Origin: an uncultured Kineothrix sp.
GTDB lineage: Bacteria > Bacillota > Clostridia > Lachnospirales > Lachnospiraceae
Direction: 5' to 3'
Assembly (NCBI GenBank): GCA_964519385.1
Contig: CAZFLR010000007.1
Coordinates: 16,045 to 80,044, forward strand
DNA length: 64,000 nt
Of the stretch, positions 31,316 through 49,214 are shown one piece after another. The notes beneath the pieces were generated by a model. That model saw nothing but the letters and a program-made list of their open reading frames with translations. It searched no databases and was not told where the DNA came from. The translations under genes and the position numbers were made by a program. Within the stretch, counting starts at the first letter, position 1. Every line of letters starts with the position of its first letter.

Positions 31316-32365
31316 TTACGAAAATACTCCCATTATTTTGATGTAATCTTCTGTTTTGTCACGCATGATTTGAAATCCCTGTTCCAATTCCTCCATGGAA
31401 AATCTATGGGTTATCATCTGTTCCGGAATTATCTTTTTTTGTGCAAGTAAATCCAGTACATAATGCCAGTCATCCTCTGCCTCTCCGGTAAAAGATGAAT
31501 TCCACGTTCCCTTCACTGTAAGCTGGTTGCGCAGAATCTTCCAGTAGACTGTTTTTTCTAACGTCATATCCGAATGCGGATTTCCAACCAGCATCACCCT
31601 TCCGGCCGGTGCCGTGAGATTGACAGCCCGGGCAAATGTCTCATTTTTTCCAACGCACTCAAAAAAGAGGTCCGCGCCTCTTCCTTCTGTGCGTGCAAAA
31701 ATCCATTCTTCCACATTCTGCGCGCGCATATCACAATAGTTTTCCTCAGATATTCCGAGCGAAAACACTCTTTCCCTCTGAAAATCTTTATTCCCGATAA
31801 CAAGTATATGTTCTGCTCCGGTCTCTCTCAGAAACATAGTAAGAAAAAGCCCGATGGTTCCAAGTCCGCATACCACAATATAATCATCTTTTTCTGCTCT
31901 GAATCCGCGCATGGCATGCGTGGCAACCGCCATAGGCTCCAGCATCGCTGCCGCTTCATACGAAACACCCTCGGGAAGCTCAATCAGACACTCCTTCGGA
32001 ACAGCAACATACTCGGCAAAAGCTCCATCCCTTCTCGATCCGAGGTAGTCATAATTTCTGCACATTTCATACTGCCTGTTCCTGCAAGGCCCGCACGCTC
32101 TGCATGGAATCAGCGGAAATACACCGACTGCCTTATCCAGCCATTTATCTTCCCCGTCTGCTGCCACCTCAACTACCTTCCCTGAAAATTCGTGCCCAAT
32201 TACAATCGGATGCCTGTGCGCTCCGGTCTGATAGGCTCTTGGAATATCCGAGCCGCAAATACCCGCCGCCATCACCTTTACGAGCACCTCTCCTTTTTGC
32301 AACGACGGTTTTTCTATCTCTTCCATCTGAAATTGATTGACTCCGCGTAATACATATGCTTTCAT
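31316..32365 (-). CDS. tarJ: Zn-dependent medium-chain dehydrogenase, TarJ-like ribulose-5-phosphate reductase
   Basis: 349 aa. GICGSDIPR and GHEFSG zinc-ADH motifs. ATGA-coupled to the upstream cytidylyltransferase in tarI-tarJ order. Confidence 0.7.
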   Translation of the reverse strand: MKAYVLRGVNQFQMEEIEKPSLQKGEVLVKVMAAGICGSDIPRAYQTGAHRHPIVIGHEFSGKVVEVAADGEDKWLDKAVGVFPLIPCRACGPCRNRQYEMCRNYDYLGSRRDGAFAEYVAVPKECLIELPEGVSYEAAAMLEPMAVATHAMRGFRAEKDDYIVVCGLGTIGLFLTMFLRETGAEHILVIGNKDFQRERVFSLGISEENYCDMRAQNVEEWIFARTEGRGADLFFECVGKNETFARAVNLTAPAGRVMLVGNPHSDMTLEKTVYWKILRNQLTVKGTWNSSFTGEAEDDWHYVLDLLAQKKIIPEQMITHRFSMEELEQGFQIMRDKTEDYIKIMGVFS

Positions 32366-33048
32366 TTATCTTTCTCCACTAATTGACGAAAACGCTCCAA
32401 ATCCGCCTGTGTTGTGATTTTAAAATTTTGTTCTTCCCCGAAAACAACAGCTATCTCCATGCCGGCCAGAACCGCCGGTTCGCTTGAGCCATTGATTTTC
32501 ATAATTTCATCCGGCAAAAGTCTCTCGTTTGCCCTGTAATATTTTTCATAATGAAACACTTCCGGAGCTTGCCCGGCCACCACCCGGCTCCGATCAAGTA
32601 AAGCTGTAATTGTTGTTCCGTCTGCACTCAGATACACCGTATCTTTCATCGGCAGTACCGGAAGAACTCCGTCATGCTCTTTCGCCTTTGCGAGATACTC
32701 TGTAACCATCCCGGCCGTCAAAACCGGTCTTGCCGCATCATGAATAAACACCCTGGTGTCGGGTTCTGCCAAAAAACGAACATCACAAAGTGCATTCCAA
32801 ACAGAAAGCTGTCGGTTAGCTCCAGGTAACGAAAATCCTCTTACCTTCTTCATGCATACACTCTTCTTTATGTAGTCACGCCAAACCTCATCTGCCACAA
32901 TCCATATAACATCAATCTGAGGATGTCTGTCCAGAACCTCTATGCTGTATCCGATAATCGGCTTTCCATTCACTTCGATATACTGTTTCGGCATATCACC
33001 GCCGAGGCGGGTTCCGGTTCCCCCGGCTAAAATAATTGCTATGTTCAT
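32362..33048 (-). CDS. tarI: IspD/TarI-family cytidylyltransferase (ribitol-5-phosphate cytidylyltransferase)
   Basis: 228 aa. AIILAGGTGTRLGGDMPKQYIEVNGKPII. Paired with the TarJ-like reductase. Confidence 0.75.
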   Translation of the reverse strand: MNIAIILAGGTGTRLGGDMPKQYIEVNGKPIIGYSIEVLDRHPQIDVIWIVADEVWRDYIKKSVCMKKVRGFSLPGANRQLSVWNALCDVRFLAEPDTRVFIHDAARPVLTAGMVTEYLAKAKEHDGVLPVLPMKDTVYLSADGTTITALLDRSRVVAGQAPEVFHYEKYYRANERLLPDEIMKINGSSEPAVLAGMEIAVVFGEEQNFKITTQADLERFRQLVEKDK

Positions 33049-33104
33049 AGGTACTCCTGTTGATTAAGCCCGCTCCCCGCTATGTCTTCGGGCAATAACG
33101 AAAA

Positions 33105-33767: not shown

Positions 33768-33863
33768 ACAATTCCCCCTATTCTCTTTTGCCATATCGCC
33801 TACCGGCACTTTTCCATCTCCGACTCAAACGCAGCCATATCCATTCCAACTTCTTTCGCTGCT

Positions 33864-34124
33864 TCACTCACTTTCTTTTACTCTTTCTGTGTATGAATTC
33901 CTATACCTTTCATCTTTTGTAAACACGGACAGAGAATCCAGCACCGCCTCTATGTGGCGTACTCTTGCCGCCTGATTCGTCCTCAAGGTATCTACACCAA
34001 GCCTTCTATCTTTAAAAAAACGAGCAACAAACTTAAAATCACTTGTAAACTGCTCTATTATATTATCGCTCAAAAAGGCGATATCGTAAACCCGTATTTT
34101 ATAATCTTCCACATACTTTTTCAT
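33864..34124 (-). pseudogene. Possible C-terminal remnant of an Rpn/PD-(D/E)XK-type putative transposase (low confidence)
   Basis: An isolated 86-aa ORF (YKIRVYDIAFLSDNIIEQFTSDFKFVARFF) in an AT-rich gap with no N-terminal nuclease part. The family call comes from memory of similar C-termini only. Confidence 0.25.
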
Positions 34125-34214
34125 TTAAACCCTTTTATATTTCATTGTAAATTGGAAAATAAATGATGTTAAATAATGATTGAAATAGAATTGTAATTTG
34201 AAATTAAATATGAT

Positions 34215-34244
34215 TTTCGCATCCGCACAATCGCGGATGCGAAA
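34215..34244 (-). terminator. Strong hairpin downstream of the LRR surface-protein gene
   Basis: TTTCGCATCCGC-acaatc-GCGGATGCGAAA: a 12-bp perfect stem whose A/T ends could serve as U-tracts in either direction. Confidence 0.55.
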
Positions 34245-34323
34245 TAGTTATGTCTATGATTATAACTTAATTTCATATAGTGTCAAGTGACTATTGTCAG
34301 GAATCTGTAATGAAAGGCCCCTC

Positions 34324-37300
34324 TTATTTTTTCACTTTCGCTTTGGACGATAGTCCCTTATTCTTAAACAGCTTCTTATATGCTGCCAGCTTCTTCTTAG
34401 GCACTTTGATGGTCAGCTTAGAATAATTTTTACCTCCGGCTCCCTTCCATGCCCCTGCTCCCACATTTTTCGCTGTCAGCTTCGTGGTATTGACTGTAAC
34501 CGTTTTCAGTGATTTACAGTTAAAAAAAGCTTTTTTTCCGATTTTTCCGACATTTTTCCCAATCACTACCGAAGTTAACTTTTTATTATTTGCAAACGCA
34601 TTATTGGCAATAGAGGTTACCTTATAGGTAACTCCATCCACTTTTATTGTCGCAGGTATGACTATTTTTTTGGCTTTTTTATCTGCAGGTGTCTTAAATT
34701 CCACCTCTGACCCCTGTTTCGTAACTCTGTAAAAAGCCTTTCCATCCGGTGATTTGAATGTCGTTCCCTTTTTCGGTAACGGCAATATAGCGATTTCTTC
34801 TGTCTTCTTCTCACCACAAATCTTACAGGTATAGGTTTTCACACCTGCTGCAGTCGTCGTTGCTTTGCGGGTAACAACACCGCCGTCCCACGTATGCGAC
34901 GTTAATTTCGGAATGTCAGCCACGTCCTTCAACGATTTATCGTTTCCGTAAACAGCCGTATAAGTAGTAATTCCCATTGACTTACACGTTGCCGGTACCT
35001 TTATTTTACCGGTTACCTCACAGCTTGTTTCTGCTGTATGAGAACTGTCTCTCTTGCATATCAACTGTGCCACACAGCCTTTTCCATCTGCAGACCACAC
35101 AAATAATGCTTTGTATTCATGTCCAAGTGCTCCGGCTGATACCTGTTTTTTTATCGTCTTATGACATATGTCACAATCGACATGTCCCCTTCCGCCTTCC
35201 TCACAGGTCGGCATCACATCATCTGCAGCATCAAAGAGCAGTTCTCCCTCTGTATGGGCAGCTCTGTAAATCCGAATCTGTATACTTTCGTTTTGATAAT
35301 TCCCTGCATCATCGCCAATATATTCTGCCGTGTCCATCACTCCACTGCCTGCAACAAGCACATCATCCCTCGCAGCAACCGGCCACTGCCAGCCTGTAGG
35401 AAGGGACACATCACCTACATACTCTGTACCACACGACACATGGAGTTCTGCCTTAGGCATATCAGGTGCATTCTCCGCTTTGTTTACACGGATAACGATT
35501 GTTTTATGTGCAGAAGAATAATTTTCGGTCTCCGTTGCCGAAATCTTCACCGTGGCACTTCCTGCTGCCAAAATCGTAATTGCCCCGCTTGCTTTATTCA
35601 CGGAAATTACATCTTCACCCTCTAAAATTTCATACGATAAAGTTCCGTCCCCGTTCGTCTGCGCTTCAATCTGCTTATTTACATCTCCATAAGTGAATTC
35701 GAGATTCTCAGCAGTGATACTCTGTGAATACTTTTCTGCGACCGTCAATGTACCATTCTTATATGTAAAAGTATAATTATCTGACTCCGCCGGTCCGGTA
35801 ATTTCAATAGGGTAGGTTCCGATTGTCATATCTGTTGCGCAGGAAATAATCGGAACAAAATCAATGGTTTCGCCATTGACAAGACCGCTAATCTTATAGG
35901 TGTATTCCGGACGTTGCTCCATATCTTTTACATATTTATCATCCGCAGTAATCGTCACCGGTGCCTTTGTAATGGAATAAATATAAACCGGAAGCTGCCC
36001 GGACCACTCTGTATTATCCGGATCTGTAAGCGTCACTATCGCATCATAAGTTCCGACTGCTGTTTTCGTCACATTTGTCACCTGATAATCATCCGTTCCT
36101 GCCAGCACATAGGTCTGTGGCACTCCTTTATAAACAAATACATTCTCCTGATTCACCCGCGGAGGCACAATCTTTTTCTTGTTTACATTCACCGATATCG
36201 TCTTATCCTTAGACATATAATTCGCCGTTCCCGCAAGTACAATTTTCACACTGGCACTTCCGGCCTTTAAAATGGTGATTTTCCCTGTTGTTTCATCCAC
36301 CGAAATCACATCCGTGCCTTCCGTCACCGCATACGAAAATTTTCCTCCGCTTACCGCCGATGCCACAACAGCCCCATCCGTATCTCCGTATGTCAACTCG
36401 ATATCCGAAGCCTCAATATCATAATATAATTTTTTGTCAATGGTAGCCTTTGCAATATATGTATTTGTTTGTAACGAATAATTTTCATTTAACAGATTTA
36501 CCTTAACCGTTACATCCTTATCAACCCCTGCATTGGCATCTGAAAACTCTGCAGTCGCCGTATAATCCTTCCCCATGGTAAATGTATCCTGTGCATCGTC
36601 AAAAGTTACCGAAGTCACTTCCGCATTCCCGGTTCCATCATACTCTTTCGGCAAAACCCGTGCACCGGAGATGGTAATTGGCTTTGGAAGCACCGTAACA
36701 GATACCGTTACCGGATCTGCATAGTAAGTATAGGTGTTATCCGGAACAAACTGCGCGGTAAAAGCTTTTGTTCCCACTGTTCCTACAGACAAGGTGTCAT
36801 CCTCCCACACCCATCTTCCGCCACTCACAGTCGAAAGCTGTACATCCGCAAGGGTTTCACCATAAACCGCAGCTTCTGCCACAGGAGCTTTTGCATGGTT
36901 CACAAATTGTCCGAGAATTCCATAAAAGAAATAATCCTTTTCTTCCTCTCCCACCTTCACATGATTCACATCTTCGATGGAAAGATAAGCATATATCTCC
37001 TTCTCCGTTCCGTGTTTTTTCGGATAAGCTTTTCCGTTAATCAGGACCTCTGATTCTCCATCCGTTGCAATCATCAACGGCATAACTCCTTCTCCGTCGG
37101 AATTTACGGCAACGGTACTTTCATGCAGACCTGTCTTGAGAGAACCTCCGTCAATCACCAGTCTTGATATCGTATATCCCGGCATTGCCCTTGATACGCC
37201 GATACCATCTGCATATTCCGTTGGCAAAGCCGTAATCACACCATCTTTAATCTTTATATTCTCCGTACTGCTTACATCGTCTGCTCCGATTCCTGCTGCC

Positions 37301-37803
37301 AGATTACCTCCGACTGCTTTCAAACTACCAGTTCCTTTAAGAACCAGCATTCCGATTTCCTCTCCGGTTCCGTTTTTTTGCAAAGCCGCTGCGTAAGGAG
37401 AAGCTTTCAGAACATTATCTCCCTCCAGCGTAATCGTTACATTCCCCGCACTTCCATCCGCAATCTCAACCGCGGCCAAATACTCCGTACTCTGCCCCGA
37501 CAAGTCAATCGACACATCGGAAAGGGTAAGATTCACCGACACTCCGTCCGCTACTAAAATCTGATGCTCCGTCGTAGTTCCCGTAACCTTCACATTCTGA
37601 TTTTCCGTATAGGAATAGGTTTCCTCCCCGTACTGAATCGTATCTCTGCCAATTATAACGCTGCCCTGCGCAATATTCATTGCTGTTCCTTCATAAGAAA
37701 CCGCCCCCTGTGTTTCCGTCGCATTGCTGCTGACAGGAAAATTCCCCACGACTAACATCGCGCACAAAAGCACAGACAACATCCTCTTCATACAAGTTTT
37801 CAT
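34324..37803 (-). CDS. Large secreted surface protein: Ig-like/MBG-type repeats, a Cys-rich segment, and C-terminal BspA-type leucine-rich repeats
   Basis: 1159 aa. Signal peptide MKRMLSVLLCAMLVVGNFPVSSNA. Two internal repeats of about 85 aa (..DIELTYGDTDGAVV..GKITILKAGSASVKI.. and ..NLEFTYGDVNKQIE..GAITILAAGSATVKI..). C-terminal LRR (VTSIANNAFANNKKLTSVVIGKNVGKIGKKAFFNCKSLKTV). No LPXTG motif seen. Confidence 0.8.
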   Translation of the reverse strand: MKTCMKRMLSVLLCAMLVVGNFPVSSNATETQGAVSYEGTAMNIAQGSVIIGRDTIQYGEETYSYTENQNVKVTGTTTEHQILVADGVSVNLTLSDVSIDLSGQSTEYLAAVEIADGSAGNVTITLEGDNVLKASPYAAALQKNGTGEEIGMLVLKGTGSLKAVGGNLAAGIGADDVSSTENIKIKDGVITALPTEYADGIGVSRAMPGYTISRLVIDGGSLKTGLHESTVAVNSDGEGVMPLMIATDGESEVLINGKAYPKKHGTEKEIYAYLSIEDVNHVKVGEEEKDYFFYGILGQFVNHAKAPVAEAAVYGETLADVQLSTVSGGRWVWEDDTLSVGTVGTKAFTAQFVPDNTYTYYADPVTVSVTVLPKPITISGARVLPKEYDGTGNAEVTSVTFDDAQDTFTMGKDYTATAEFSDANAGVDKDVTVKVNLLNENYSLQTNTYIAKATIDKKLYYDIEASDIELTYGDTDGAVVASAVSGGKFSYAVTEGTDVISVDETTGKITILKAGSASVKIVLAGTANYMSKDKTISVNVNKKKIVPPRVNQENVFVYKGVPQTYVLAGTDDYQVTNVTKTAVGTYDAIVTLTDPDNTEWSGQLPVYIYSITKAPVTITADDKYVKDMEQRPEYTYKISGLVNGETIDFVPIISCATDMTIGTYPIEITGPAESDNYTFTYKNGTLTVAEKYSQSITAENLEFTYGDVNKQIEAQTNGDGTLSYEILEGEDVISVNKASGAITILAAGSATVKISATETENYSSAHKTIVIRVNKAENAPDMPKAELHVSCGTEYVGDVSLPTGWQWPVAARDDVLVAGSGVMDTAEYIGDDAGNYQNESIQIRIYRAAHTEGELLFDAADDVMPTCEEGGRGHVDCDICHKTIKKQVSAGALGHEYKALFVWSADGKGCVAQLICKRDSSHTAETSCEVTGKIKVPATCKSMGITTYTAVYGNDKSLKDVADIPKLTSHTWDGGVVTRKATTTAAGVKTYTCKICGEKKTEEIAILPLPKKGTTFKSPDGKAFYRVTKQGSEVEFKTPADKKAKKIVIPATIKVDGVTYKVTSIANNAFANNKKLTSVVIGKNVGKIGKKAFFNCKSLKTVTVNTTKLTAKNVGAGAWKGAGGKNYSKLTIKVPKKKLAAYKKLFKNKGLSSKAKVKK

Positions 37804-37872: not shown

Positions 37873-39945
37873 TTATTCCATCACGTCTCTGATATCCGTC
37901 ATGCGATTAAAAAAGGGGTCTTCCACTGTCAGAGCCAAAAAATCCCTGTCTTTAATCTCCACATTTGTAATCAGTGCCAGCAAGGTCTCATCGAGTTTCT
38001 TGTTTACCCCTCTCGCCTTTCCCGGAAGAATAGATATGTATGTTTTAAAATAATCCAGAATTCCTTCCTGTGCCCTTCCGAAACAACGAATATCTTTCTC
38101 ACTTCTGGTCTCCTCCGCATAAACAGCCTCTCCTTCAGGCGTAAACTCCGATATCGACGGATGTGGTGCCGTCAGTATTGTCTCTAATATGTAGTAATGT
38201 TCAAAAATTGCACTCTCATTCTTTTCCGTTTCCCCATAAAACGGTTCTATATCGATACCTTTATCCCTCATAAACTCAGGTTCCGGCTGCAGGAAATATA
38301 ATCCCTTCAAAGGATTGTCCAAAAGCTTTTGCAGGTATAACTGCGTCGTTCCCTTCGCTACGAAATCAAAAATTGCAACCTCGCCTTGCGGATATCCCAG
38401 TTTCTCAATATACTTCCTGTAATTTTTCTTCTGTCGCGATGCCTTTTCCAATATCGCATCCCTATATTGCATCAAACCGCTTTCCTCATCCGGCGCACCA
38501 TCCCCGCACGGCTCTAGTCCGAACCGCACTTTCAGACATTCCTGTGATGTCCCGGAAAATTTCATACTGTTCACATACAGAATATCCTCTTCTGTCTCCA
38601 TACCGGCACGAATCGCCGCCGTTCGCGAGGTTAGAAAATAACGGACTCTTTTCCCCTCCGGCTCCAGTGCATCATACATTTTTTTTATTACATAACCGTC
38701 GCGGGCACAAAGCCAGATATCCCCGATTCCTCTTTTGGTCGTAATTTCATCCATCCATAATACAAAATCGGTAATCATCGCTCCACAGAGTAAATATCCG
38801 ATATCATATGTGTCCTCTATCTCAAGACTTCTGTTTTCCGTTTCAAAACAAAACGGATTATTCATCATTCGGGAGACAAACATGCCTATCTTTGTTCTGT
38901 CCGCCAACGTATTGGTCATATCCTCAGTTCCGAGACTTCCCAGTGCCTCAAACAATTCCATTCCGCTATGCAACCGGAATGTCTGAATTCTGCATTTTTC
39001 TGCCGGGAGAATATCTGCCGAGATATCATCGCCAATATGCAGATACACATCTGCTTTCACACGTTCCTTATACCGCTGAAACAGTTCCTGCGTTTTTCCC
39101 GTCTTTTCTTCGCTTGAAACAAGCAGACTGCTATAACCGGAAATTCCGCACAATTCCAAAAGCGTTTCAATCTGTTCCCGACTATAATAAGTATCAGTGA
39201 TAATATAAACCGGTTTGCCGAGCCTGACAATTCTCTTCAGGATTTCGACCGTTTCCCGTCGCGGAAGAACTACCTGCTGTTCTATCTCCCACTCTGTTTC
39301 TGCTGCCTTTTCCGGAGAAACATCCACATTGCCGTCCAACATCTGTATTGCTCGTTCATATATTTGTTCCAGTGTCGGTGCTTCTGTCTTGGACAATTCC
39401 TTTTCTGCTGCCAGCCTTGCATTCTCCAGCTCTCCCGGATGAAATCCTTTCTCCTCAAGGGAAAGCTTAACCAGCTCAAAAATATCCGTATACGAATATA
39501 AGCATCTGGTAACCAGCGTATCAAACAAATCAAAGCTCACCACGTCCGCACTGTGTATTTTTTCCAAAAGCTGTTTCTTCGTCGATGCTTCAAAGTCACG
39601 GAAATTATAAATTATGCGATTAGAAATAAGCAAATCTTTTCCCCTGACATCAAACAAAGCAATTCCTTGCTCGGTACACATTTCTCCGATACGCCTTTTA
39701 ATCGCTTTACAGGATCCCGGACGCGCCACTACAATAATCAGCTTCACCCGCGCTTTTACCGCATCATCAAAAGACACTATCTTCTTTCCGTACAACATTC
39801 CCGAATCCGTGAACCCATCCAGCAGACCAAAGATGTCAAATTCGTTATCCAAAGCTGCAATGACTTTTTCCGTCTCGGTTCCCAGACCGTACAGGGCAAT
39901 TCTTTCCTTCCTGTATGCACTTAATACTTCCAGTAGTTTTTCCAT
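37873..39945 (-). CDS. Multidomain protein: N-terminal small Rossmann-like module, COG5610-type HAD-superfamily hydrolase domain, and an uncharacterised C-terminal half
   Basis: 690 aa. RIALYGLGTETEKVI at the N-terminus. VVSFDLFDTLVTR (HAD motif I variant) and HIGDDISADI (motif IV-like). Confidence 0.65.
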   Translation of the reverse strand: MEKLLEVLSAYRKERIALYGLGTETEKVIAALDNEFDIFGLLDGFTDSGMLYGKKIVSFDDAVKARVKLIIVVARPGSCKAIKRRIGEMCTEQGIALFDVRGKDLLISNRIIYNFRDFEASTKKQLLEKIHSADVVSFDLFDTLVTRCLYSYTDIFELVKLSLEEKGFHPGELENARLAAEKELSKTEAPTLEQIYERAIQMLDGNVDVSPEKAAETEWEIEQQVVLPRRETVEILKRIVRLGKPVYIITDTYYSREQIETLLELCGISGYSSLLVSSEEKTGKTQELFQRYKERVKADVYLHIGDDISADILPAEKCRIQTFRLHSGMELFEALGSLGTEDMTNTLADRTKIGMFVSRMMNNPFCFETENRSLEIEDTYDIGYLLCGAMITDFVLWMDEITTKRGIGDIWLCARDGYVIKKMYDALEPEGKRVRYFLTSRTAAIRAGMETEEDILYVNSMKFSGTSQECLKVRFGLEPCGDGAPDEESGLMQYRDAILEKASRQKKNYRKYIEKLGYPQGEVAIFDFVAKGTTQLYLQKLLDNPLKGLYFLQPEPEFMRDKGIDIEPFYGETEKNESAIFEHYYILETILTAPHPSISEFTPEGEAVYAEETRSEKDIRCFGRAQEGILDYFKTYISILPGKARGVNKKLDETLLALITNVEIKDRDFLALTVEDPFFNRMTDIRDVME

Positions 39946-40973: not shown

Positions 40974-41002
40974 AAACAATTCCCTCTTTTCTTTCTCCGG
41001 TG

Positions 41003-42172: not shown

Positions 42173-42184
42173 TTTCACTCCCCC

Positions 42185-42658
42185 CTATTCTTCAGTAAAT
42201 ATATCAAAGCTAAAAATCGCACTTGTCACCGAGACCAAATCCTCCTGTCTGACTCCCTGATTCATAAAATCTTCAAACACGGCATTTTCGTGAAACAAGC
42301 TGCAAATCATTATCTTTTCTATCTCGCCGGATTGATATCGCCTCAAAACCTCATTTGGCGACACCACTTCTGTCTGACATACCCCCTGCGGAAAGCGGGT
42401 GAAATTCCTGTCACCGATACACCTTACCTCCACCGGAGAATCGGACCCGTGCAAATCGCGCAGTATATATTCCGTAAATTCCGTGACCGCATACAAGGCA
42501 ATTTTTTCTGTCTGTATTTGTTCAAAAAAAACACCTATATTCCAGCCACGCAATTTATTTTCCAGATAGCGCATGACTACCGGGCACTGATAACGATATC
42601 TCTCATTGCGCTCAGCCGAATTATATTTTGTTACGATTTTTTTTACCTTAGGAAACAT
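42185..42658 (-). CDS. Stand-alone copy of the small Rossmann-like module (function unknown)
   Basis: 157 aa. EKIALYAVTEFTEYILRDL ... EKIMICSLFHENAVFEDFMNQGV is collinear with the modules fused to three neighbouring enzymes. Tightly packed in the operon, with 2-6 nt gaps. Confidence 0.6.
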   Translation of the reverse strand: MFPKVKKIVTKYNSAERNERYRYQCPVVMRYLENKLRGWNIGVFFEQIQTEKIALYAVTEFTEYILRDLHGSDSPVEVRCIGDRNFTRFPQGVCQTEVVSPNEVLRRYQSGEIEKIMICSLFHENAVFEDFMNQGVRQEDLVSVTSAIFSFDIFTEE

Positions 42659-42660
42659 AG

Positions 42661-43734
42661 CTATCTCCCTTCTTTTACGTCCAGCATCTCCTTTAAAAAC
42701 TCAACGGACTTTTCTCTTTCACGCTGTATCTTCGCGCTGATATCGGAAAAATCCATAGACCCTGAAACCTGTGTGACATCCATATATGTATCCACTATCC
42801 TGTTTCCGATTTCCATTTTTTCCGTCAGCATGTCAAATCTGCTTCTCATAGAATCCACAACAAACAAATAAAACGGCGTTTTAAACTGCACGGAAAACAG
42901 CGTGGCATGATAAGAATTCGTCACTACCATCCGGGCATTTTGAATATACCACAGAAAATTTTCTACCCCTTCATACATCATGCAGCCGTCATCTTTGCTG
43001 AACATATATGGCGGAGCACCCGGAATAGAATGCACCACCGCAAGGTTATATTTTCTGGAGAGCATATTTACAAACTCTACCCCTTTCATAAGCTCATGGT
43101 CATGTTCCAGCCAGAAAAAGAACAGAAAAGGCTTATCCCTCAGCGTCTCTTTTGCAATGATATCTTTATATTCCTCCGGTTCCAGAAGCAAAGTCGGATC
43201 CACAACCGTTCTGCATTCCATTCCGCTCGCTGCAGTCATAAAGGAAAGCTGATCTTTTTCCCTTAGGGAAATCCCCTTGAACTTAGACGCATACTTCACA
43301 AATATATCCTCATACGCCTTAGCTCTCTCAGCCGACATACCAACACTGACGGCATAGGAAAATCGCGGTGAGGAATCAGCCAGATATGCGAATAAATAAT
43401 TCTCATTCACCGTCGCAAATTCAAAATTCCACACCTGATCGCTTCCGACGCAGTAATAATCATAAGAAGCATCCGTCACTTCATGAATCATAGGCTGATT
43501 CAATCCGCATTTTTCCCGCAAAAAACTTTCAAAATGCGCTCTCTTTTCCATCATATGTACATAGGATTCCTCTGTGTTGGCAGGTGTCGCATACGCATAC
43601 CCTTCCGGTACATAATTAATAAGCTCCGCCTGATATCCTTCCAGCGAATTTATACGTCTGCGCAGCGCATATGCCTGTAAAACCGCCCCATAATTATTGG
43701 CATATTGGAATGTTAAAATACCGACTTTTTTCAT
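42661..43734 (-). CDS. Polysaccharide pyruvyl transferase family protein
   Basis: 357 aa. KVGILTFQYANNYGAVLQAYAL and TNSYHATLFS are typical of the family. Confidence 0.8.
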   Translation of the reverse strand: MKKVGILTFQYANNYGAVLQAYALRRRINSLEGYQAELINYVPEGYAYATPANTEESYVHMMEKRAHFESFLREKCGLNQPMIHEVTDASYDYYCVGSDQVWNFEFATVNENYLFAYLADSSPRFSYAVSVGMSAERAKAYEDIFVKYASKFKGISLREKDQLSFMTAASGMECRTVVDPTLLLEPEEYKDIIAKETLRDKPFLFFFWLEHDHELMKGVEFVNMLSRKYNLAVVHSIPGAPPYMFSKDDGCMMYEGVENFLWYIQNARMVVTNSYHATLFSVQFKTPFYLFVVDSMRSRFDMLTEKMEIGNRIVDTYMDVTQVSGSMDFSDISAKIQREREKSVEFLKEMLDVKEGR

Positions 43735-43746
43735 ATTGCTCCTCTT

Positions 43747-45849
43747 CTACACCTCTACAGAATATATTGTGGCATTCGGATATTTTTTTCGTATGTCCTT
43801 TTTTACCTCAGCCATAAATTGTCCGGCCGCAACCACCCATATACAATCCGTTCTCTCCTCAGGATTTTGCGCCACGAACTCATCAAATGTGCAAATACCC
43901 TGCTTCTTTACATGATTGTCAATAATACACTCTATCTGCTTCTCATATTTGCGGGCAAACATCCGTCCCAGTATACCATAGCCATATAATATAATCTTTG
44001 ATGACTGAAATACATCCTCATGTGTGGATGCCTTTTGTCTCTTCCAGTTAACCTCATCCCTTATGCATGCTCCATTCGCTTTTCCTGCCACAATTGCATG
44101 CTCCGGCATATTTTTATTTACCACCGTCTGCGCCGTAATCAGACTGTCCTGCCCGATTCGCACACCCTTTAACACTGTCACGTTCGAGGTCAGCCATACA
44201 TGATTTTCGATGACAACTTCCTTCGCCGGATTTACCGAAGCTCCGCAGTCGTTCTGCAGTTGATGAAAATCGCTGTCATAAATCATAATATTTCTACCCA
44301 GCATCACATCTTCACCCAGAACCACTTTTTTTGCAACAATAATGACACTTCCGCCGTTTGCCGTAAAAAATCCGGTATCCAACAAAGCATTTTCCTTAAC
44401 CTCGACTACCGTATTATAAAACAACGCGCCTCCGTGATGCATATTCCATAAAGCCTTATCATTCATTCTGACATGTGTTTCAGATTTTGAGCCTCTCAAT
44501 TTATTAATTCCGATTTCAAAATCTTTGTCTCCATGTACATAAATTCTCGCCGTCTTATCAAGATCCAGTATCGCATTTTTATACGGAATCAGCTTCGCAG
44601 TTCCTAAGCGCACCACATTCTTTGAACAGTAATTGTAAAAAAGATACTTTAAAACAGATATTTCTCCATGATTTTTATATTTCTTTTTATCTTTTTTCAA
44701 TTCTCTGCAGATATATAATGGTCCGTGTTTTTTCTTTGTACTTTTCTCTTCACCTATACATTGCCGTACAGCTTCGCTGAATGTTTTTTCTTTTATCAGC
44801 TCTGCAAACTTTTCTGTCTTCCCGGAGTTTGCCGGATTCTGTAATAATGCTTTATTTCCCGGCAAAACATCCTCTATCATCTTTTCCCTGATATACAGGC
44901 TTCCTTTTGCTCTTTCAAATAACCGCTTCCCTTTTTCCGTATTCAGCATCAGAACCGAAATCCCCTGAAACATATCATACTCGGACTCTCCGGCTATCCC
45001 CCAAAAATCACCGATTGTGATATCTGAAACCTTTCTCGGCAATGTTCTGTACCGGCATTCAAAACAGGATTCTCTCGTGTATAAATCATTTCCCACAAAT
45101 CCTTTTACCCACAAATCCTCATTTTTATCCTTATGGTATTCTGCTCCGTTTTCAAAACAAACCCGGGTCGCAAGACTCCGCCATCCGGTTTTCTTGTTTT
45201 TAAGGTGCACCATAGTTGCCTTCGCCCCATATTCCTTCTCAAGGTCGGAAATGTATTCTCTGAATGCGAGCGGTGAATTGATACTCCTGCAAATAAAGTC
45301 CATATAATATATTTCTGCTTTGGTATCGCCCAGATACATGGACATTGCTGCATTCTGGCACGGAGTTCCGCAGAACAAAACCTCTTTGCCCTTTTTCAGT
45401 TCTTCTTTTACCGCCTTATAAATTCCTTCCGTATCGCTTTGGAAATATTTTGAGCCACACAGACATTCCAATTCTTCCATTGTACGTGCCAGAAAATGAT
45501 TGGCACTTTTATAGTTCTCGCCATAACGACAACCGGCTACTGCACCTCCGTTTTCTATAATCTTTCTTGCAAGCTCATAGAAAACGCCTCCAGAGGTACT
45601 CTGATTTCTAAGGGTAGAATCCTTACTCCAGGCTGCCCAGACCACCGGCTCATTCCCCTCCGGCACTTGTTCCGCTTGAAGCGAAGGGCATTTTTTCTCA
45701 CACAAACCACAATCCGTACACTTCTCTTTATCAATGTGAGGATACCAAAATCCTTTCTCGTCTGTCTCAAACGTAATCGCACCGTGCGGGCAGACATCTG
45801 CGCACATCTTGCACCCGGTACATTGACCTTTTGTCATATCACCTATCAT
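43747..45849 (-). CDS. Tri-domain fusion: 2x[4Fe-4S] ferredoxin plus FrhB-like (coenzyme F420 hydrogenase/dehydrogenase beta-like) domain, a left-handed beta-helix acyltransferase, and a small Rossmann-like module
   Basis: 700 aa. CTGCKMCADVCP and CTDCGLCEKKCP; SGGVFYE and LFCGTPCQ (FrhB-like). Hexapeptide region VVLGEDVMLGRNIMIYDSDFH..VVIENHVWLTSNVTVLKGVRIGQDSLITAQTVV. C-terminus KIILYGYGILGRMF. Confidence 0.75.
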   Translation of the reverse strand: MIGDMTKGQCTGCKMCADVCPHGAITFETDEKGFWYPHIDKEKCTDCGLCEKKCPSLQAEQVPEGNEPVVWAAWSKDSTLRNQSTSGGVFYELARKIIENGGAVAGCRYGENYKSANHFLARTMEELECLCGSKYFQSDTEGIYKAVKEELKKGKEVLFCGTPCQNAAMSMYLGDTKAEIYYMDFICRSINSPLAFREYISDLEKEYGAKATMVHLKNKKTGWRSLATRVCFENGAEYHKDKNEDLWVKGFVGNDLYTRESCFECRYRTLPRKVSDITIGDFWGIAGESEYDMFQGISVLMLNTEKGKRLFERAKGSLYIREKMIEDVLPGNKALLQNPANSGKTEKFAELIKEKTFSEAVRQCIGEEKSTKKKHGPLYICRELKKDKKKYKNHGEISVLKYLFYNYCSKNVVRLGTAKLIPYKNAILDLDKTARIYVHGDKDFEIGINKLRGSKSETHVRMNDKALWNMHHGGALFYNTVVEVKENALLDTGFFTANGGSVIIVAKKVVLGEDVMLGRNIMIYDSDFHQLQNDCGASVNPAKEVVIENHVWLTSNVTVLKGVRIGQDSLITAQTVVNKNMPEHAIVAGKANGACIRDEVNWKRQKASTHEDVFQSSKIILYGYGILGRMFARKYEKQIECIIDNHVKKQGICTFDEFVAQNPEERTDCIWVVAAGQFMAEVKKDIRKKYPNATIYSVEV

Positions 45850-48332
45850 TCTGTCACCCCTTTAATCTCATCCCATACAGTCTTACCGACATTTATCTCC
45901 CCTCGCGTCTCTTCCTCTGAAAATCCCGGGTCTAATACCTTACAAAAACGACGCAGGTCAAACAGATTACTTTCTACGCCTCTGTGCTCCCTAAGCTCAG
46001 CCCGGATATTCTTCTCATATCGATTCAAATAAAGCTCCAGTTCCTTCTCTTCCGGCTGATTATCGTATATTCGTTCCGCACCCGATTCGTCTCTGATAAG
46101 AACCTTTCCGTCGGTCATCTGGCATATCCTTCTCTTATTCTCCAATACCCTGTAACAGGTATACTGTTCGTCCAAAATCTGCATCTCTTTTTCTGAATCT
46201 TTTGAGAGTATCATCGTTTTGGACTTATATGTACCCGGAAATACAATCTCTCTTCCTGTGTCCACAACTCCCAAAAAGAGTCCGCCCGGAGCTGTTGCTC
46301 CCTTGGGCAAATCAATCTCCAGCACTTCTTTTTTTCCGTCCCAGCGCACAATAGAGGTATTATCTCTCGGAGAAAGCCAAAAATATCTGCCGTCCCATGT
46401 CATTCCCGAATAACAGTTCTTCGCCTTTCCGATTTCAATCCACTCAAAATTTCCTGTCTTCAAATCAAATTTTAAAACATGATTTCCCATACAGGATGCC
46501 AAATATACTATTTGACCGCATCGTGCATAATCATTTCTGAAAAAAGCATTCTGATTTTTCGCCTCGGAATCCGGTATGTTTTCAAATATCTCATCATAAT
46601 AAGTGACATTGCCATTCTCTAAATCAACCTTCAGAATAGAAGGGTAACAGGTTCCGATTAAATACAGCTTCTCTTCGTAAAAAAGAGTTTGGAAAAATTT
46701 TAATTGCACATTCTTGTCTTGTACATGAATTTCTTTCCACTGCTTCGTATCACAATTGAATATAAGTATCTTCTTTGCGGCAAGAGGTGTAAAAACAAGG
46801 AAATTCTTCCATATATCAATTTTGGAAGCCAGTCGGTCCTCCATGATTTTTTCATCCGGTATGTTTCCCAGTATCTTTGTCTTACCGCTTTCCGTATCCA
46901 GTTCACAAATCATATTGATATCGCGTGCCACGAAAATCAATTTACCGTCTTTTTCACAAAAGTCTTCAAATATCACGGCATTTTCTTCCGCACATCTGAA
47001 GCTCTGCAACAGCATTGGTTTTCCTGCCTCTTCGCAGAGCTTTACCACGCTGCTTCCGTCCCCATAATATCCGTCACAAACTGCTATCGCCCTGTCCAGT
47101 TCCGGCGAATCATCATAAATCCCGAATCTGCGGGCTTTATACTCTTCCACCAGCTTACTGTATTTTTCCCACAGGTCCGGTTTCATAGACTCAATCGTTG
47201 CCTTCATCAGCGGGTGCGGTCGCCATAAAAGCACTACTTCCTCACTGTTTTCGGCAAAAAAAGTAAAAACGGATTTCATTTTTTCAATCATATCTTCACT
47301 ATGCTGTAAAAAAGCACTCACGCTTGTATTGTAAAAAACAACCTTTTTCCTTTTTTCACCCGGTCGCTCTATCAGCTCAAGCCACTCTTTAGGCAATCTG
47401 ATGTTCTCTTTTTTTATATTGCGCACCTTGTCCACTTTCGGTGAACCGGTGCCAAGAATTTTATTCTCCCAATACTTCCGCGTCTTTTCTCCTGCCCACT
47501 GCGTCATGACATCGACATAAATCTGTCGCATTGCCTCCGACTGTACCACTACTCTGTCCGCATGCAAAACTCCGGGCACCATTATAAAGTGTTCCATATA
47601 TTTTACACTCACCTTATCCTGCGGATTTATTTCATTCAGTACAAAGTAAGGAACATAGACCAGACAATCCGTGTATTCCTTTATCCGCTTAGAATAAAAT
47701 GCCGGATGGATGGTTGTCACATAGTTCGCCTCATCATAGGGATTATGGATAAAAATTACATCCGGACGTCTTTCTTCTAGGCGATATGCATCATAGTGTG
47801 TAATCGGAACATATTCGGGGAATAACTCTCCCTCATAATGCATTTCCTTTACCGAGCCGTCCGGCTTCTTATCAAAGTACGGTATCGGAACCACATATGC
47901 GTCGCACGACGGATCTGCATCCGCTGCAAGCCAGATGCTTTCAAGCGAATCCCACATAGAGGCCTTATACGGCAGAAAAAGAACTTCTTTTTTTTCTTTT
48001 ATATCTTCGCTGATACTATTTCGTATACGCTCTAAAATTACGGACAGAGTTTCCCGAACCTCAGCTCTGGAAATGAACTCCTTCTTTGTAAGCGATACAT
48101 GAATTTGATAAATAGCTTCACAATATTCTTCCAGCATTGCAACGGTGACAAACCCCTGACCTTCCGAATCCTCTATCACCGTCCCGATTATAATCGCGCT
48201 CTCCTGGCACTGCTGTAAAAGAAGCATTGCATCCTGTACTCTGCATTCCTCTATCACCCCTGCCAAAAGTTCATGCGCTTTTTCAATTGTTTCAACACTT
48301 TTTATAATCTGTTCTTTTTGCTGTTTTCTCAT
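45846..48332 (-). CDS. TagB/TagF-like CDP-alditol phosphotransferase domain fused to a C-terminal beta-propeller-like repeat region
   Basis: 828 aa. KKVVFYNTSVSAF, VLLWRPHPL and AVCDGYYGDGSSVV parallel the TagF-family blocks (ILYAPT.R, .HP., .D.liTDYSS). The last ~350 aa carry repeated beta-strand blades (..LIFVARD.., ..FLVFTPL.., ..LYLIGTC.., ..IVYLASC.., ..YFWLSPR..). Confidence 0.6.
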   Translation of the reverse strand: MRKQQKEQIIKSVETIEKAHELLAGVIEECRVQDAMLLLQQCQESAIIIGTVIEDSEGQGFVTVAMLEEYCEAIYQIHVSLTKKEFISRAEVRETLSVILERIRNSISEDIKEKKEVLFLPYKASMWDSLESIWLAADADPSCDAYVVPIPYFDKKPDGSVKEMHYEGELFPEYVPITHYDAYRLEERRPDVIFIHNPYDEANYVTTIHPAFYSKRIKEYTDCLVYVPYFVLNEINPQDKVSVKYMEHFIMVPGVLHADRVVVQSEAMRQIYVDVMTQWAGEKTRKYWENKILGTGSPKVDKVRNIKKENIRLPKEWLELIERPGEKRKKVVFYNTSVSAFLQHSEDMIEKMKSVFTFFAENSEEVVLLWRPHPLMKATIESMKPDLWEKYSKLVEEYKARRFGIYDDSPELDRAIAVCDGYYGDGSSVVKLCEEAGKPMLLQSFRCAEENAVIFEDFCEKDGKLIFVARDINMICELDTESGKTKILGNIPDEKIMEDRLASKIDIWKNFLVFTPLAAKKILIFNCDTKQWKEIHVQDKNVQLKFFQTLFYEEKLYLIGTCYPSILKVDLENGNVTYYDEIFENIPDSEAKNQNAFFRNDYARCGQIVYLASCMGNHVLKFDLKTGNFEWIEIGKAKNCYSGMTWDGRYFWLSPRDNTSIVRWDGKKEVLEIDLPKGATAPGGLFLGVVDTGREIVFPGTYKSKTMILSKDSEKEMQILDEQYTCYRVLENKRRICQMTDGKVLIRDESGAERIYDNQPEEKELELYLNRYEKNIRAELREHRGVESNLFDLRRFCKVLDPGFSEEETRGEINVGKTVWDEIKGVTE

Positions 48333-48344
48333 TTCATCCCACTT

Positions 48345-49214
48345 TTATAATCTTGAAAAATCACAGGTATCCGGATTATAACGCAGCCTTATATTTTCAT
48401 TCAGACTGCTGATCCGGGCTATTTCTTTTGGTGTCATTTCAAAATTTTCCACATCAAATATATCATCAAAATGTTCCTTATTCAGCGTTCTTGGTATCGC
48501 TGTTCTTCCCAACTGATAATGCCATCTTAAAATAATCTGAACCGCTGATTTTTGATACTTTTGCGAAAGTTCGTAAATCGGTCTTGATTTAATCAGAACA
48601 TCATGCATTCTTCCGATTGGTGAGTATGCAATCGGCTGAATGTCATTTGCGTAGCAGTAATTTATCAGAGCCTCCTGCGTAAACAGCGGATGAATTTCAA
48701 ACTGGTTTACCGCCGGTACAACCGTTGCTTCCTGCATAAGCTCCTCTAGATGATGCTTATGAAAATTGCAGACTCCTATCGAGCGTATCAAACCTTCCTC
48801 GTACAATTTCTCCATCTCTTTGTAGGTTTGTACAAAAGTTCCGGTCTGCGGCCAGTGAATCAGATAAAAATCAACATAATCCACCCCCAGCGCGGAAAGC
48901 GTCTTTTCCAGTGCCAGTCTTACATTTCCTTCCCACTGCTGCTTATTGCTGATTTTAGACATTAATAAGATGTCCTTTCGCTCAATGCCCGAATCCTTCA
49001 CTGCCTTACCCAGCATCTCCTCATTATGACCGTATGCCCCTGAGGTATCAAACAATTTACATTTCCCCGACATCAGTGCATGGCAGTATATATGATATTG
49101 TCTGTCCATCAATTCCGCGACGGATGCATCTTCTTTTTTCCCCCATATTCCGGTAGCTCCAAGACCCAGTCTCGGCAGACATTTCCCATTGTTTAATATA
49201 ATCTGGTCTTTCAT
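48345..49214 (-). CDS. Aldo/keto reductase family oxidoreductase
   Basis: 289 aa. LFDTSGAYGHNEE, VDYVDFYLIHWP, IGVCNF, NQFEIHP. Confidence 0.85.
   Translation of the reverse strand: MKDQIILNNGKCLPRLGLGATGIWGKKEDASVAELMDRQYHIYCHALMSGKCKLFDTSGAYGHNEEMLGKAVKDSGIERKDILLMSKISNKQQWEGNVRLALEKTLSALGVDYVDFYLIHWPQTGTFVQTYKEMEKLYEEGLIRSIGVCNFHKHHLEELMQEATVVPAVNQFEIHPLFTQEALINYCYANDIQPIAYSPIGRMHDVLIKSRPIYELSQKYQKSAVQIILRWHYQLGRTAIPRTLNKEHFDDIFDVENFEMTPKEIARISSLNENIRLRYNPDTCDFSRL

Follow-up and report, generated by a model that had tools for sequence, protein, structure and literature searches.

A block of teichoic-acid- and capsule-type enzymes upstream of flgM in an uncultured Kineothrix species as a candidate flagellin-decoration system

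Why should enzymes of the teichoic-acid and capsule type be encoded directly upstream of late flagellar genes? The question is raised by a 64,000-nucleotide stretch from an uncultured Kineothrix species (GenBank assembly GCA_964519385.1, contig CAZFLR010000007.1, positions 16,045 to 80,044 of the forward strand; hereafter the window, with its own numbering), in which 13 co-directional open reading frames (ORFs) occupy about 18 kb of the minus strand (31316-49214) and the last one stops 49 nt short of flgM. We lean, by a modest degree, toward the view that this block supplies the decorating half of a flagellin glycosylation system. In the direction of transcription, the block consists of the following genes:

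48345-49214, minus strand: aldo-keto reductase (AKR) of 289 aa, the first block gene (Pfam Aldo_ket_red, 141 bits)
45846-48332, minus strand: p828, a three-domain TagF-like protein of 828 aa (AlphaFold 2 (AF2) model, Foldseek and family-level Glyphos_transf matches)
43747-45849, minus strand: FrhB-AT, a 700-aa fusion of two 4Fe-4S clusters with an FrhB-like flavoprotein and an acetyltransferase of the left-handed beta-helix type (Pfam Fer4, FrhB_FdhB_N/C and Hexapep)
42661-43734, minus strand: polysaccharide pyruvyl transferase of 357 aa (Pfam PS_pyruv_trans)
42185-42658, minus strand: p157, a 157-aa protein without Pfam match, kept in related islands
41003-42178, minus strand: GT2 with a C-terminal Rossmann-like domain of the C2185-like_N type (Glycos_transf_2, 124 bits)
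39960-40979, minus strand: Stealth-family hexose-1-phosphate transferase of 339 aa (CR1-CR3 above cutoffs, CR4 below)
37873-39945, minus strand: predicted CrpP-like HAD phosphatase and CriT-like transferase of 690 aa, with an N-terminal Rossmann-like domain (homology to Bcs3)
34324-37803, minus strand: secreted surface protein of the MBG/YDG/BspA-LRR type, which has a signal peptide and a C-terminus rich in lysine (Pfam, sequence)
33864-34124, minus strand: 86-aa ORF (from the ORF list), following a consensus sigma-70 promoter, with a 71% homologue in locus L087
33105-33809, minus strand: ribulose-phosphate 3-epimerase, Rpe (Ribul_P_3_epim, 159 bits)
32362-33048, minus strand: TarI-type alditol-phosphate cytidylyltransferase (IspD family, 128 bits)
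31316-32365, minus strand: TarJ-type polyol-phosphate dehydrogenase, a Zn-dependent MDR protein (ADH_N/ADH_zinc_N)

The flagellin reading is supported because the block ends just before late flagellar genes which themselves abut an island with three GT2-TPR genes, because its order through flgM is kept in a sister species, because in other genomes tarIJ adjoin fliC and p828-family genes lie near fliC or GT2-TPR genes, because the enzymes are soluble and are accompanied by neither exporter nor primer in 64 kb, because a sigma-28-type promoter drives the two genes just upstream of the block, and because FtaD of Clostridioides difficile gives a precedent. Thus the two features looked for in a flagellin island, linkage to flagellar genes that is kept in relatives and enzymes that are exclusively soluble, are both present, with the exceptions given below.

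In the sister species (L093), the same gene order, including the surface-protein gene, continues through flgM-flgN-flgK. The flagellar proteins of the two species are 81-88% identical, whereas the island enzymes range from 46% (TagF-like) to 92% (Rpe), and the island evolves faster than the flagellar core, as would be expected of a surface-variable determinant. The surface-protein gene holds the same position in L085 as well, and its place in the sister species shows that it is not a recent insertion, although a first-pass annotation made from the letters of this DNA and its list of ORFs had called it inserted; its product is probably not a pathway enzyme. Linkage to flagellin genes recurs in more distant genomes. 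For example, a gut-metagenome contig (L104) carries FliD, FliS, an FlgN-like protein, TarI, TarJ and flagellin in succession on one strand (Pfam-verified), in a Roseburia-like metagenome-assembled genome (L089) fliC comes about 120 nt after Rpe-TarI-TarJ, and tarIJ adjoin fliC in L134. Genes of the p828 family lie zero to three genes from fliC and/or GT2-TPR genes at five loci (L009, L034, L056, L083 and L109), and at three others (L047, L064 and L066) such a gene directly follows an FlhB-C-like gene in a che/flg region. In Kineothrix, the TagF-like gene with the AKR, FrhB-AT and pyruvyl-transferase module adjoins FliB_C/GT2-TPR genes, CriT-like, Rpe, TarI and TarJ genes are linked to DUF3880-GT and GT2-TPR genes in L127, L128 and L130, and TarJ together with a TagF-like gene is linked to GT2-TPR in L109.

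Parts of the block also travel as units. TagF-like, CriT-like, Rpe, TarI and TarJ genes are contiguous in L017, as are CriT-like, TagF-like, Rpe and TarI genes in L057; the TagF-like, AKR, FrhB-AT and pyruvyl-transferase genes are contiguous in Kineothrix alysoides (L001) and occur together in L073; and a Stealth gene follows a p828-family member in L025. Among cultured bacteria, K. alysoides KNHs209 and Lacrimispora aerotolerans DSM 5434 carry related islands. Members of the p828 family adjoin tarIJ or rpe in L017, L057, L112, L126, L109 and L045. Rpe follows the CriT-like gene even without tarIJ (L090-L092), and may feed phosphoribosyl pyrophosphate (PRPP) as much as ribitol.

The genes from 49214 down to 37873 are tightly packed, with 12 nt between AKR and p828, a 4-nt overlap of p828 and FrhB-AT, and then gaps of 12, 2, 6, 23 and 14 nt. 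Beyond 37873 the surface-protein gene follows after 69 nt, the 86-aa ORF after another 199 nt and rpe (counted from its GTG start) after another 54 nt, and next come a 56-nt rpe-tarI gap and a 4-nt tarI/tarJ overlap. The first-pass annotation had described both this packing (gaps of 2-23 nt or 4-nt overlaps) and the co-directional junction with flgM on the minus strand, and our measurements agree with it. It had overlooked p157 and the 86-aa ORF, and its family calls stand for AKR, FrhB/acetyltransferase, pyruvyl transferase, GT2, Stealth and the Rpe, TarI and TarJ types, with reservations for the TagF-like protein and the HAD protein that are explained below.

No enzyme between 37873 and 49214 contains a 19-residue stretch with a mean hydropathy of 1.6 or more, and Rpe and TarJ, which are soluble Rossmann-type enzymes, have one borderline hydrophobic stretch each. 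Multi-transmembrane (multi-TM) proteins in the window comprise FeoB, an SNF symporter, a histidine kinase with its partners and a small Cys-rich protein, p255TM, and within the 64 kb there is no flippase, ABC exporter, priming transferase, polymerase or ligase, nor any TagO/TagA, TagGH or LCP ligase. The earlier statements that the block enzymes are without long hydrophobic segments, that export and priming genes are lacking in the window and that the same applies to the left-hand glycosyltransferase island were therefore correct. Three membrane or secreted proteins are encoded directly upstream of the block (49300-51806). The ORFs at 61117-63940 (minus strand) were considered as an ABC exporter and rejected; they make up an Agr-like signalling module, unrelated to the block, with a LytTR response regulator, a GHKL histidine kinase (about six transmembrane segments) and a 268-aa membrane protein.

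Export and priming genes are likewise nearly absent from about 130 related 20-kb loci, 80 of them around p828-family members and 50 around TarJ homologues, the exceptions being L047, L064, L066, L057, L089 and L093. Multi-TM neighbours at these loci are few and mostly unrelated transporters, and ABC pairs, which are rare, adjoin the enzyme strings at none of them. Eight of the ten multi-TM neighbours of p828-family members that were tested are unrelated transporters or a membrane signalling protein, and the remainder comprise Bac_transf and Wzx proteins in L047 and a MATE/MOP protein in L057. Membrane proteins downstream of tarJ in metagenome loci were considered as a sign of a wall pathway and set aside, since they proved to be a P-type ATPase, YitT and BlaR1, and only YfhO, which occurs downstream in five TarJ loci, could be wall-related.

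The signals and the gene pair that border the block are as follows:

50961-50987, minus strand: sigma-28-type promoter, TTAAGTTATTGGAATAAATGCCGATAT, upstream of the p178TM-p338TM gene pair
49300-50881, minus strand: p338TM (secreted, with immunoglobulin-like (Ig-like) domain) and p178TM (N-terminal anchor), from hydropathy and homologues
49244-49271, minus strand: strong hairpin with a stem of 12 bp, of which 8 are GC pairs, and then TTTTCATT, in the gap from p338TM to AKR
31282-31308, minus strand: sigma-28-type promoter of flgM, TAAAGTTCCCCGGGAAAATACCGATAA, in the tarJ-flgM gap, conserved in L093

Only five intergenic sigma-28-type matches are present in the window. That at 50987-50961 shares its -35 element with the promoter of fliC2 and is kept in the same-species contigs L003, L085 and L086, and the others precede fliC1, fliC2, flgL and flgM. 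The AKR start codon lies 30 nt beyond the hairpin that ends the p178TM-p338TM pair, which leaves no room for a further promoter, and it is therefore plausible, judging from the arrangement of these signals, that the flagellar-class promoter reads through the hairpin into the block. Genes of the p338TM/p178TM type adjoin TagF-like, CriT-like or rpe genes at eight loci (L006, L020, L036, L063, L089, L090, L091 and L112). p338TM itself has a signal peptide, belongs to a family of just 47 homologues and is accompanied by a CBM_X2 domain in a few relatives; p338TM-like genes lie at about 7713-8560 in L112 (order TagF-like, p338TM-like, Rpe, TarI, TarJ), and at 12193-13239 in L090 and L091 (CriT-like, p338TM-like, Rpe), and the p338TM/p178TM-type region of L089 is at 12112-13830. 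A 13-bp GC-rich hairpin stands immediately 3' of the sigma-70 promoter between the surface-protein gene and the 86-aa ORF/rpe (34215-34286, minus strand); it may terminate the surface-protein gene or, alternatively, provide a 5' stem for the rpe-tarIJ transcript. An Rfam search gave no match in the window or in three related loci.

If the block decorates flagellin, what could it build? The 690-aa protein is informative in this respect. It had been called simply a HAD protein, which is accurate for one of its domains and incomplete for the rest. A single-sequence comparison with Bcs3, the capsule polymerase of Haemophilus influenzae type b (Hib), gave an E value of 2e-5, and the profile of its family matched Bcs3 at 1e-14, with query residues 134-544 on Bcs3 residues 382-837; the aligned span covers CrpP, CriT HB-1, part of CAT and HB-2, with the C-terminal part of CriT (838-1036) outside the alignment. 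The domain limits and catalytic residues of Bcs3 are known, and CriT is a PRPP-dependent ribose-5-phosphate transferase (PMC10299916). The HAD motif I nucleophile corresponds to the invariant D139 in SFDLFDT, aligned with D386 of Bcs3 (FDIFDT), and the acidic pair of CriT is kept, with the invariant D416 at D680 and the invariant D527, a change from E to D, at E818. Compared with the PRPP phosphate ligands of Bcs3 (S678/R679, S707/R708, R712 and T825), R415 and S440-R441 are invariant, R446 is kept in at least 90% of the family and T534 is aligned, while S678 is replaced by Ala. On this homology, the protein, whose family has at least 1,261 homologues, is predicted to be a CrpP-like HAD phosphatase combined with a CriT-like PRPP-dependent ribofuranosyl-5-phosphate transferase. 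At L089 (4028-9989), the CriT-like gene follows KdsA-, KdsB- and KpsF-type genes for 3-deoxy-D-manno-octulosonic acid (Kdo) synthesis and a GT2 gene, an arrangement that recalls the ribose-Kdo capsules of Escherichia coli named in the Bcs3 paper (PMC10299916).

The designation of p828 as TagF-like holds for the fold and the family, and less so for the protein taken singly. Against Glyphos_transf (PF04464), p828 itself scores 15.5 bits, below the cutoff of 22.1, with an E value of 0.0084 and over residues 257-382 only, whereas 16 of 34 sampled relatives, scanned singly at E values up to 0.1, match this family, the best at 1.8e-7. The p828 family has at least 5,998 homologues, mostly in Lachnospiraceae, which are either about 830 aa long or about 455 aa and then cover the N-terminal part alone. 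The AF2 model (pLDDT 88) consists of a helical bundle (1-110), a GT-B unit of two Rossmann domains (114-443), a beta-propeller (459-757), which is the variable region, and C-terminal helices (about 762-827). As Foldseek results with the full-length model were dominated by the beta-propeller, residues 1-450 were modelled separately (pLDDT 81) and then retrieved GT-B enzymes, among them UDP-GlcNAc 2-epimerases and, at rank 2 with an E value of 1e-7, the TagF-like capsule polymerase 8qoy; a GT-B fold by itself does not tell TagF-like from other GT-B enzymes. Neither single-sequence nor profile searches found a relative of the catalytic domain in the PDB, and no sequence similarity between the TagF-like part of p828 and CroT, the corresponding domain of Bcs3, was detectable.

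Motifs invariant in the p828 family are HNPYD, FYNT, WRPHP and YYGDxSS. The invariant H196 (in HNPYD, after strand 192-195) and H373 (in WRPHP, after strand 366-370) lie, by their position after these strands, in plausible places for the catalytic and pyrophosphate-binding histidines (H444/H584 of TagF, H96/H233 of CroT), and are candidates for these roles. The rule by which Pro or Gly three residues after the His distinguishes glycerol from ribitol enzymes maps poorly onto p828, in which the motif reads H-N-P-Y. A UDP-GlcNAc 2-epimerase or a PseG/NeuC-like hydrolase, suggested by the top Foldseek matches and by Pse/Leg-type neighbours in relatives, was set aside as the primary call because none of the 34 sampled relatives matches Epimerase_2 and 16 match Glyphos_transf. 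We therefore accept p828 as a divergent, putative TagF-like protein that falls short of full family membership.

The donor of such an enzyme could come from the end of the block, where an IspD-family cytidylyltransferase gene is coupled by the 4-nt overlap to that of an MDR polyol-phosphate dehydrogenase, as expected for a TarI/TarJ pair. The TarI-type protein lies below the NCBIfam cutoffs for ribitol-5-phosphate cytidylyltransferase (NF001183, 125.5 versus 166) and for IspD (TIGR00453, 162 versus 181), and the best PDB relative of the TarJ-type protein is galactitol-1-phosphate 5-dehydrogenase (E value 9e-56). Thus, the enzyme types agree with the complete route to CDP-ribitol proposed in the first-pass annotation, but the ribitol-specific model is missed, and the alditol is probably ribitol, judged by context, and might instead be arabinitol or another alditol. 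Given a CDP-alditol supply, a TagF-like transferase and a CriT/CrpP-like protein, the block would encode all the activities for ribosyl-ribitol-phosphate units.

The remaining enzymes could elaborate these units. The pyruvyl transferase matches PF04230 with 91 bits (cutoff 25.3) over profile positions 1-279 of 280, and is no CsaB orthologue (a weak match of 18.7 bits against a cutoff of 213). Residues 478-600 of FrhB-AT match WbbJ/EpsC-type acetyltransferases. The Stealth protein scores 128.7 bits for CR2 (cutoff 39.4), 32.6 for CR1 (27.2), 28.2 for CR3 (24.2) and 20.3 for CR4, below its cutoff of 27.4, and has CpsY (E value 1e-22) and human GlcNAc-1-phosphotransferase as PDB relatives. The GT2 orthologue in L085 is annotated PF22674, and p157 has homologues of 42-74% identity in L001, L087 and L093. 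The C2185-like_N Rossmann-like domain, with the motif KIALYGxG, makes up residues 1-130 of the CriT-like protein and residues about 290-385 of the GT2, is also found on many glycosyltransferases of related islands (L089-L092) and perhaps occurs in free-standing form as p157, which aligns in register with the C-terminal domain of the GT2 at a similarity that is not significant (E value 1.8). It may be a shared docking module.

Beyond flgM, the downstream genes are flgN, two flgK, flgL, fliW, fliD and two short flagellins, and these flagellin genes abut the left-hand island:

10462-21360, strand not specified: left-hand island with three GT2-TPR genes and GT2, DUF4422, GT1-like, GT11 and DUF3880-GT genes (Pfam)

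All enzymes of this island are soluble, with no membrane segments. The region 5927-19360 also contains genes for a fusion of a CMP-sugar-type cytidylyltransferase with a HAD/PNKP-like phosphatase, for a carboxyltransferase, a UDP-galactopyranose mutase and a second GT1-like protein. We presume that the left-hand island assembles the core glycan on flagellin, and its content suggests a complex core with galactofuranose and a CMP-activated sugar.

Taken together, we hypothesize the following scheme. GT2-TPR proteins and other soluble glycosyltransferases encoded next to the flagellin genes would place an O-glycan on flagellin in the cytoplasm. Rpe, TarJ and TarI would produce a CDP-alditol, most likely CDP-ribitol, from which p828 would move alditol-phosphate onto a sugar hydroxyl; the CriT-like domain would add ribofuranose-5-phosphate from PRPP, and the fused CrpP-like HAD domain would strip the 5-phosphate, to give a ribosyl-ribitol-phosphate unit like that of the Hib capsule. 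The Stealth enzyme might then add hexose-1-phosphate and the GT2 a sugar, while the pyruvyl transferase would add pyruvate, perhaps reduced by the FrhB-like domain, and the hexapeptide domain would acetylate. Finished flagellin would leave through the flagellar export channel, so that no lipid carrier, flippase or ligase would be needed. Observation supports the gene content, the assignment of the enzymes to families, the kept catalytic residues of the CrpP/CriT-like protein and the linkage to flagellar genes in several lineages. We infer the flagellin glycan as acceptor, the donor of p828 and the order of steps, and either a single unit or a short chain might be made; the scheme is weakest at ribitol-phosphate transfer by p828.

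Flagellin glycosylation islands in general resemble this locus in having variable strings of soluble sugar-modifying enzymes next to fliC, and GT2-TPR genes are part of the window. For these, the GmaR-type GT2-TPR enzymes of Listeria offer a comparison. The closest functional parallel is the Type A system of C. difficile (FgtA and FtaABCD), in which CDP-(N-methyl)threonine, the product of a cytidylyltransferase, serves the TagF-like FtaD (CD0244) as donor for putting the phospho-amino acid on the O-linked N-acetylglucosamine (GlcNAc) of flagellin (bioRxiv 10.64898/2026.02.12.704994; see also PMC4441256); the b-type flagellin system of Pseudomonas aeruginosa (PA1091) is analogous. The two systems share soluble enzymes encoded beside the filament genes, a CDP donor and a TagF-like phosphotransferase, and neither has a lipid carrier or exporter. 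That TagF-like enzymes act on flagellin glycans is therefore already known. However, the Type A product is a single substituent on one GlcNAc, whereas the block has a route of the CDP-ribitol type and further encodes an AKR, pyruvyl and acetyl transferases, a Stealth enzyme and a ribofuranosyltransferase/phosphatase that depends on PRPP. In addition, p828, with three domains, is far larger than FtaD, the two being compared by description only.

The closest enzymatic relative is the Hib capsule system, in which Bcs1 and Bcs3 (CroT-CrpP-CriT) likewise combine CDP-ribitol synthesis, a TagF-like transferase, a HAD phosphatase and a PRPP-dependent transferase. E. coli K18 has a split version with CroT as a separate polypeptide, as in the block. 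By contrast, Bcs3 is a single polymerase of 1,215 aa with an SH3b polymer-binding domain and membrane-associating helices, encoded in a Gram-negative group 2 ABC-transporter locus, and the block divides these functions between two proteins, has no transporter, shows a beta-propeller and a helical bundle in place of SH3b and lies in a flagellar neighbourhood. The pathway by which Staphylococcus and Bacillus make wall teichoic acid (TarO/A/B/F/I/J/L/G/H and LCP) is similar in its TarI/TarJ-type supply, its TagF-superfamily transferase and its mostly soluble or peripheral enzymes, but its TagO/TarO, TagA, TagB, TagGH and LCP proteins are lacking in the window and in nearly all related loci examined. 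For the Stealth family, whose CR1-CR3 are present here with CR4 under its cutoff, GNPTAB is a precedent for action on a protein-linked glycan, although the characterised bacterial members (CpsY and capsule polymerases) act on polysaccharides.

How far the chemistry would be new depends on the step considered. The first-pass annotation had regarded it as undescribed for flagellins, which is too broad for the TagF-like step, precedented by FtaD, and for pyruvylation and acetylation, since genes for a WcaK-type pyruvyl transferase and a WbbJ-type acetyltransferase have been catalogued in the enterobacterial flag-2 VR1 flagellin islands (PMC6993521). For the other steps it agrees with our literature search, in which we found no described flagellin island with CDP-ribitol synthesis, CriT/CrpP or Stealth enzymes, and no report of ribitol-phosphate, PRPP-derived ribofuranose or hexose-1-phosphate on flagellin.

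Several observations weigh against flagellin as the target. The TagF-like, CriT/CrpP and Stealth enzymes are otherwise known as capsule or teichoic-acid polymerases (PMC10299916). Flagellar or GT2-TPR genes lie within 10 kb at only about 10 of the 80 p828-family loci, although a 10-kb flank would miss even the flagellins of this window, which are about 25 kb away. Some genomes carry two or three islands (Schaedlerella has two), and a conserved secreted protein is encoded inside the block. flgM has its own sigma-28-type promoter and a consensus sigma-70 promoter, TTGACA-16-TATAAT (34286-34259), precedes the 86-aa ORF/rpe, so that the block need not be co-transcribed with the flagellar genes; nor do sigma-28 motifs show enrichment upstream of p828-family genes (2 of 80 loci, with about 1.3 expected). 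Relatives also supply membrane components: in L047, Bac_transf and a Wzx-like gene 1-8 kb downstream of the p828-family member; in L089, a Wzy_C protein inside the island on the opposite strand; and in L093, a 192-aa membrane PAP2 phosphatase (18795-19373) that overlaps the tarJ stop and precedes flgM. With regard to the donor, tarIJ are missing within 10 kb of most p828-family members, short relatives that are 53-63% identical to p828 head PseB/PseC/NeuB-type (nonulosonic-acid) islands without tarIJ, which implies that the donor of p828 may not be CDP-ribitol, and L104 and L128 carry tarIJ without a p828 homologue. Accordingly, the original preference for cytoplasmic flagellin decoration over a wall polymer is strengthened by the comparative linkage to flagellar genes and weakened by the separate promoters and by the PAP2, Wzy_C, Bac_transf and Wzx proteins of some relatives. 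The PAP2 protein of L093, which is not present in the window, shows canonical PSGH/SRx5Hx3D motifs.

The most serious competitor, which we consider unlikely, is that the enzymes make a teichoic-acid- or capsule-like anionic polymer (ribosyl-ribitol-phosphate and/or hexose-1-phosphate, pyruvylated and acetylated) on a lipid or wall-linkage unit. TagO/TagA, TagGH or Wzx and LCP would then be encoded elsewhere in the genome, the flagellar neighbourhood would be coincidental or reflect a shared variable region, and the basic-tailed surface protein and p338TM/p178TM could be polymer partners. Its appeal is that the three Bcs3 activities (TagF-like, CrpP and CriT) and Stealth are polymerase-type families, that in the sister species a PAP2 protein of the lipid-phosphate-phosphatase type is translationally coupled to tarJ, and that Wzy_C in L089, Bac_transf with Wzx in L047 and YfhO at five TarJ loci are at hand. 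Multiple islands per genome, often behind an integrase and a TnpB-like gene, recall phase-variable capsule loci, and the secreted protein with its lysine-rich tail is conserved within the block. The solubility of the enzymes carries little weight here, as those of wall teichoic acid synthesis are soluble anyway, apart from TagO and TagG. In addition, the authors of the Bcs3 study pointed to uncharacterised Gram-positive homologues and suggested them as possible makers of wall teichoic acid (PMC10299916). However, Gram-positive polysaccharide loci normally hold priming and export genes together, and nearly all of the related loci, like the window, lack exporter, primer and LCP. Moreover, tarIJ lie within the fliS-fliC interval in L104 and directly upstream of fliC in L089, p828-family members repeatedly adjoin GT2-TPR genes and fliC, and the pyruvyl transferase is no orthologue of CsaB.

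Two further explanations have less to recommend them. That the region is a mosaic of unrelated carbohydrate genes, gathered in a variable stretch and without a single product, we hold to be improbable: the run probably comprises at least two or three transcription units, given the hairpin before AKR, the 69-nt gap and the sigma-70 promoter before rpe, and L087 has a very different set of genes at this chromosomal site, but the genes from AKR to the CriT-like gene are tightly spaced or overlapping, sub-modules recur in distant genomes (L017, L057, Kineothrix and L073) and the whole order is kept in L093. It is slightly less probable still that the enzymes modify some other exported protein, such as a p338TM-like Ig-like protein or the MBG/LRR surface protein, or a glycolipid. 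The p178TM-p338TM pair does directly precede the block, the surface protein is conserved inside it, and p338TM-like genes stand between TagF-like/CriT-like genes and rpe in L112, L090 and L091 and beside family members in L006, L020, L036 and L063. Both proteins, however, bear Sec-type signal peptides, and proteins glycosylated in the cytoplasm normally depend on a dedicated accessory Sec system, of which none was seen in the window; neither has serine-rich repeats, the 47 homologues of p338TM compare with at least 1,261 and at least 5,998 for the enzyme families, and linkage to flagellin is stronger and recurs in more lineages.

Outside the block, the segment 51039-52901 (minus strand) encodes a radical-SAM/SPASM enzyme and the Cys-rich multi-TM protein p255TM, with 94-96% and 86-89% conservation, respectively, in the relatives L006 and L087. 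Since the adjoining glycan island of these two relatives is wholly different, the pair marks the left edge of a hypervariable region. Among the flagellar genes, the tandem FlgK paralogues (550 and 627 aa) lie at 26815-30366, and a second, divergent FliD-like gene (4536-5849, on the opposite strand) adjoins a sortase gene (3480-4292).

A further feature concerns the related loci and not the window. In 35 of the 80 p828-family loci, a TnpB-like gene, recognised by Pfam Cas12f1-like_TNB only, is located directly upstream of the TagF-like gene on the same strand (for example, L007 8258-10003, L008 8414-10003, L080 8359-10003 and L063 3787-5556), and at 11 loci it is preceded by a tyrosine integrase. 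At 25 loci, a spacer of 250-450 nt contains a conserved element with compensatory stem changes, similar to an omega-RNA scaffold and without a match in Rfam; from its end to the start codon there are 20-200 nt. Of the 26 TnpB-like proteins that could be scored at the RuvC-III position, 8 have Asp and the other 18 another residue, mostly Glu. By analogy with the fliC-associated TldR proteins, the TnpB-like protein may be an exapted RNA-guided regulator of glycan islands.

Returning to the flagellin reading, its fullest form is distinctly doubtful as a whole: Lachnospiraceae filaments would carry short teichoic-acid-like chains, with ribosyl-ribitol-phosphate repeats and hexose-1-phosphate, pyruvate and acetate, which a split Bcs3-like machine would build on flagellin while it is still in the cytoplasm. 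The largely unannotated TagF-like family of this machine would head variable flagellin-glycan islands throughout the Lachnospiraceae, and in many genomes these are perhaps under a TnpB-derived RNA-guided regulator. If this were true, protein glycosylation would draw on the whole set of capsule and teichoic-acid enzymes, filaments would be polyanionic, and the large p828 family would gain a role. Gram-positive split homologues of Hib Bcs3 have in any case been identified here, and may serve the enzymatic synthesis of antigens of the polyribosylribitol phosphate type. Lachnospiraceae flagellins are the CBir1-type antigens of Crohn's disease. As these flagellins are dominant antigens of the gut microbiota, their immune recognition may depend on the coat that they carry.

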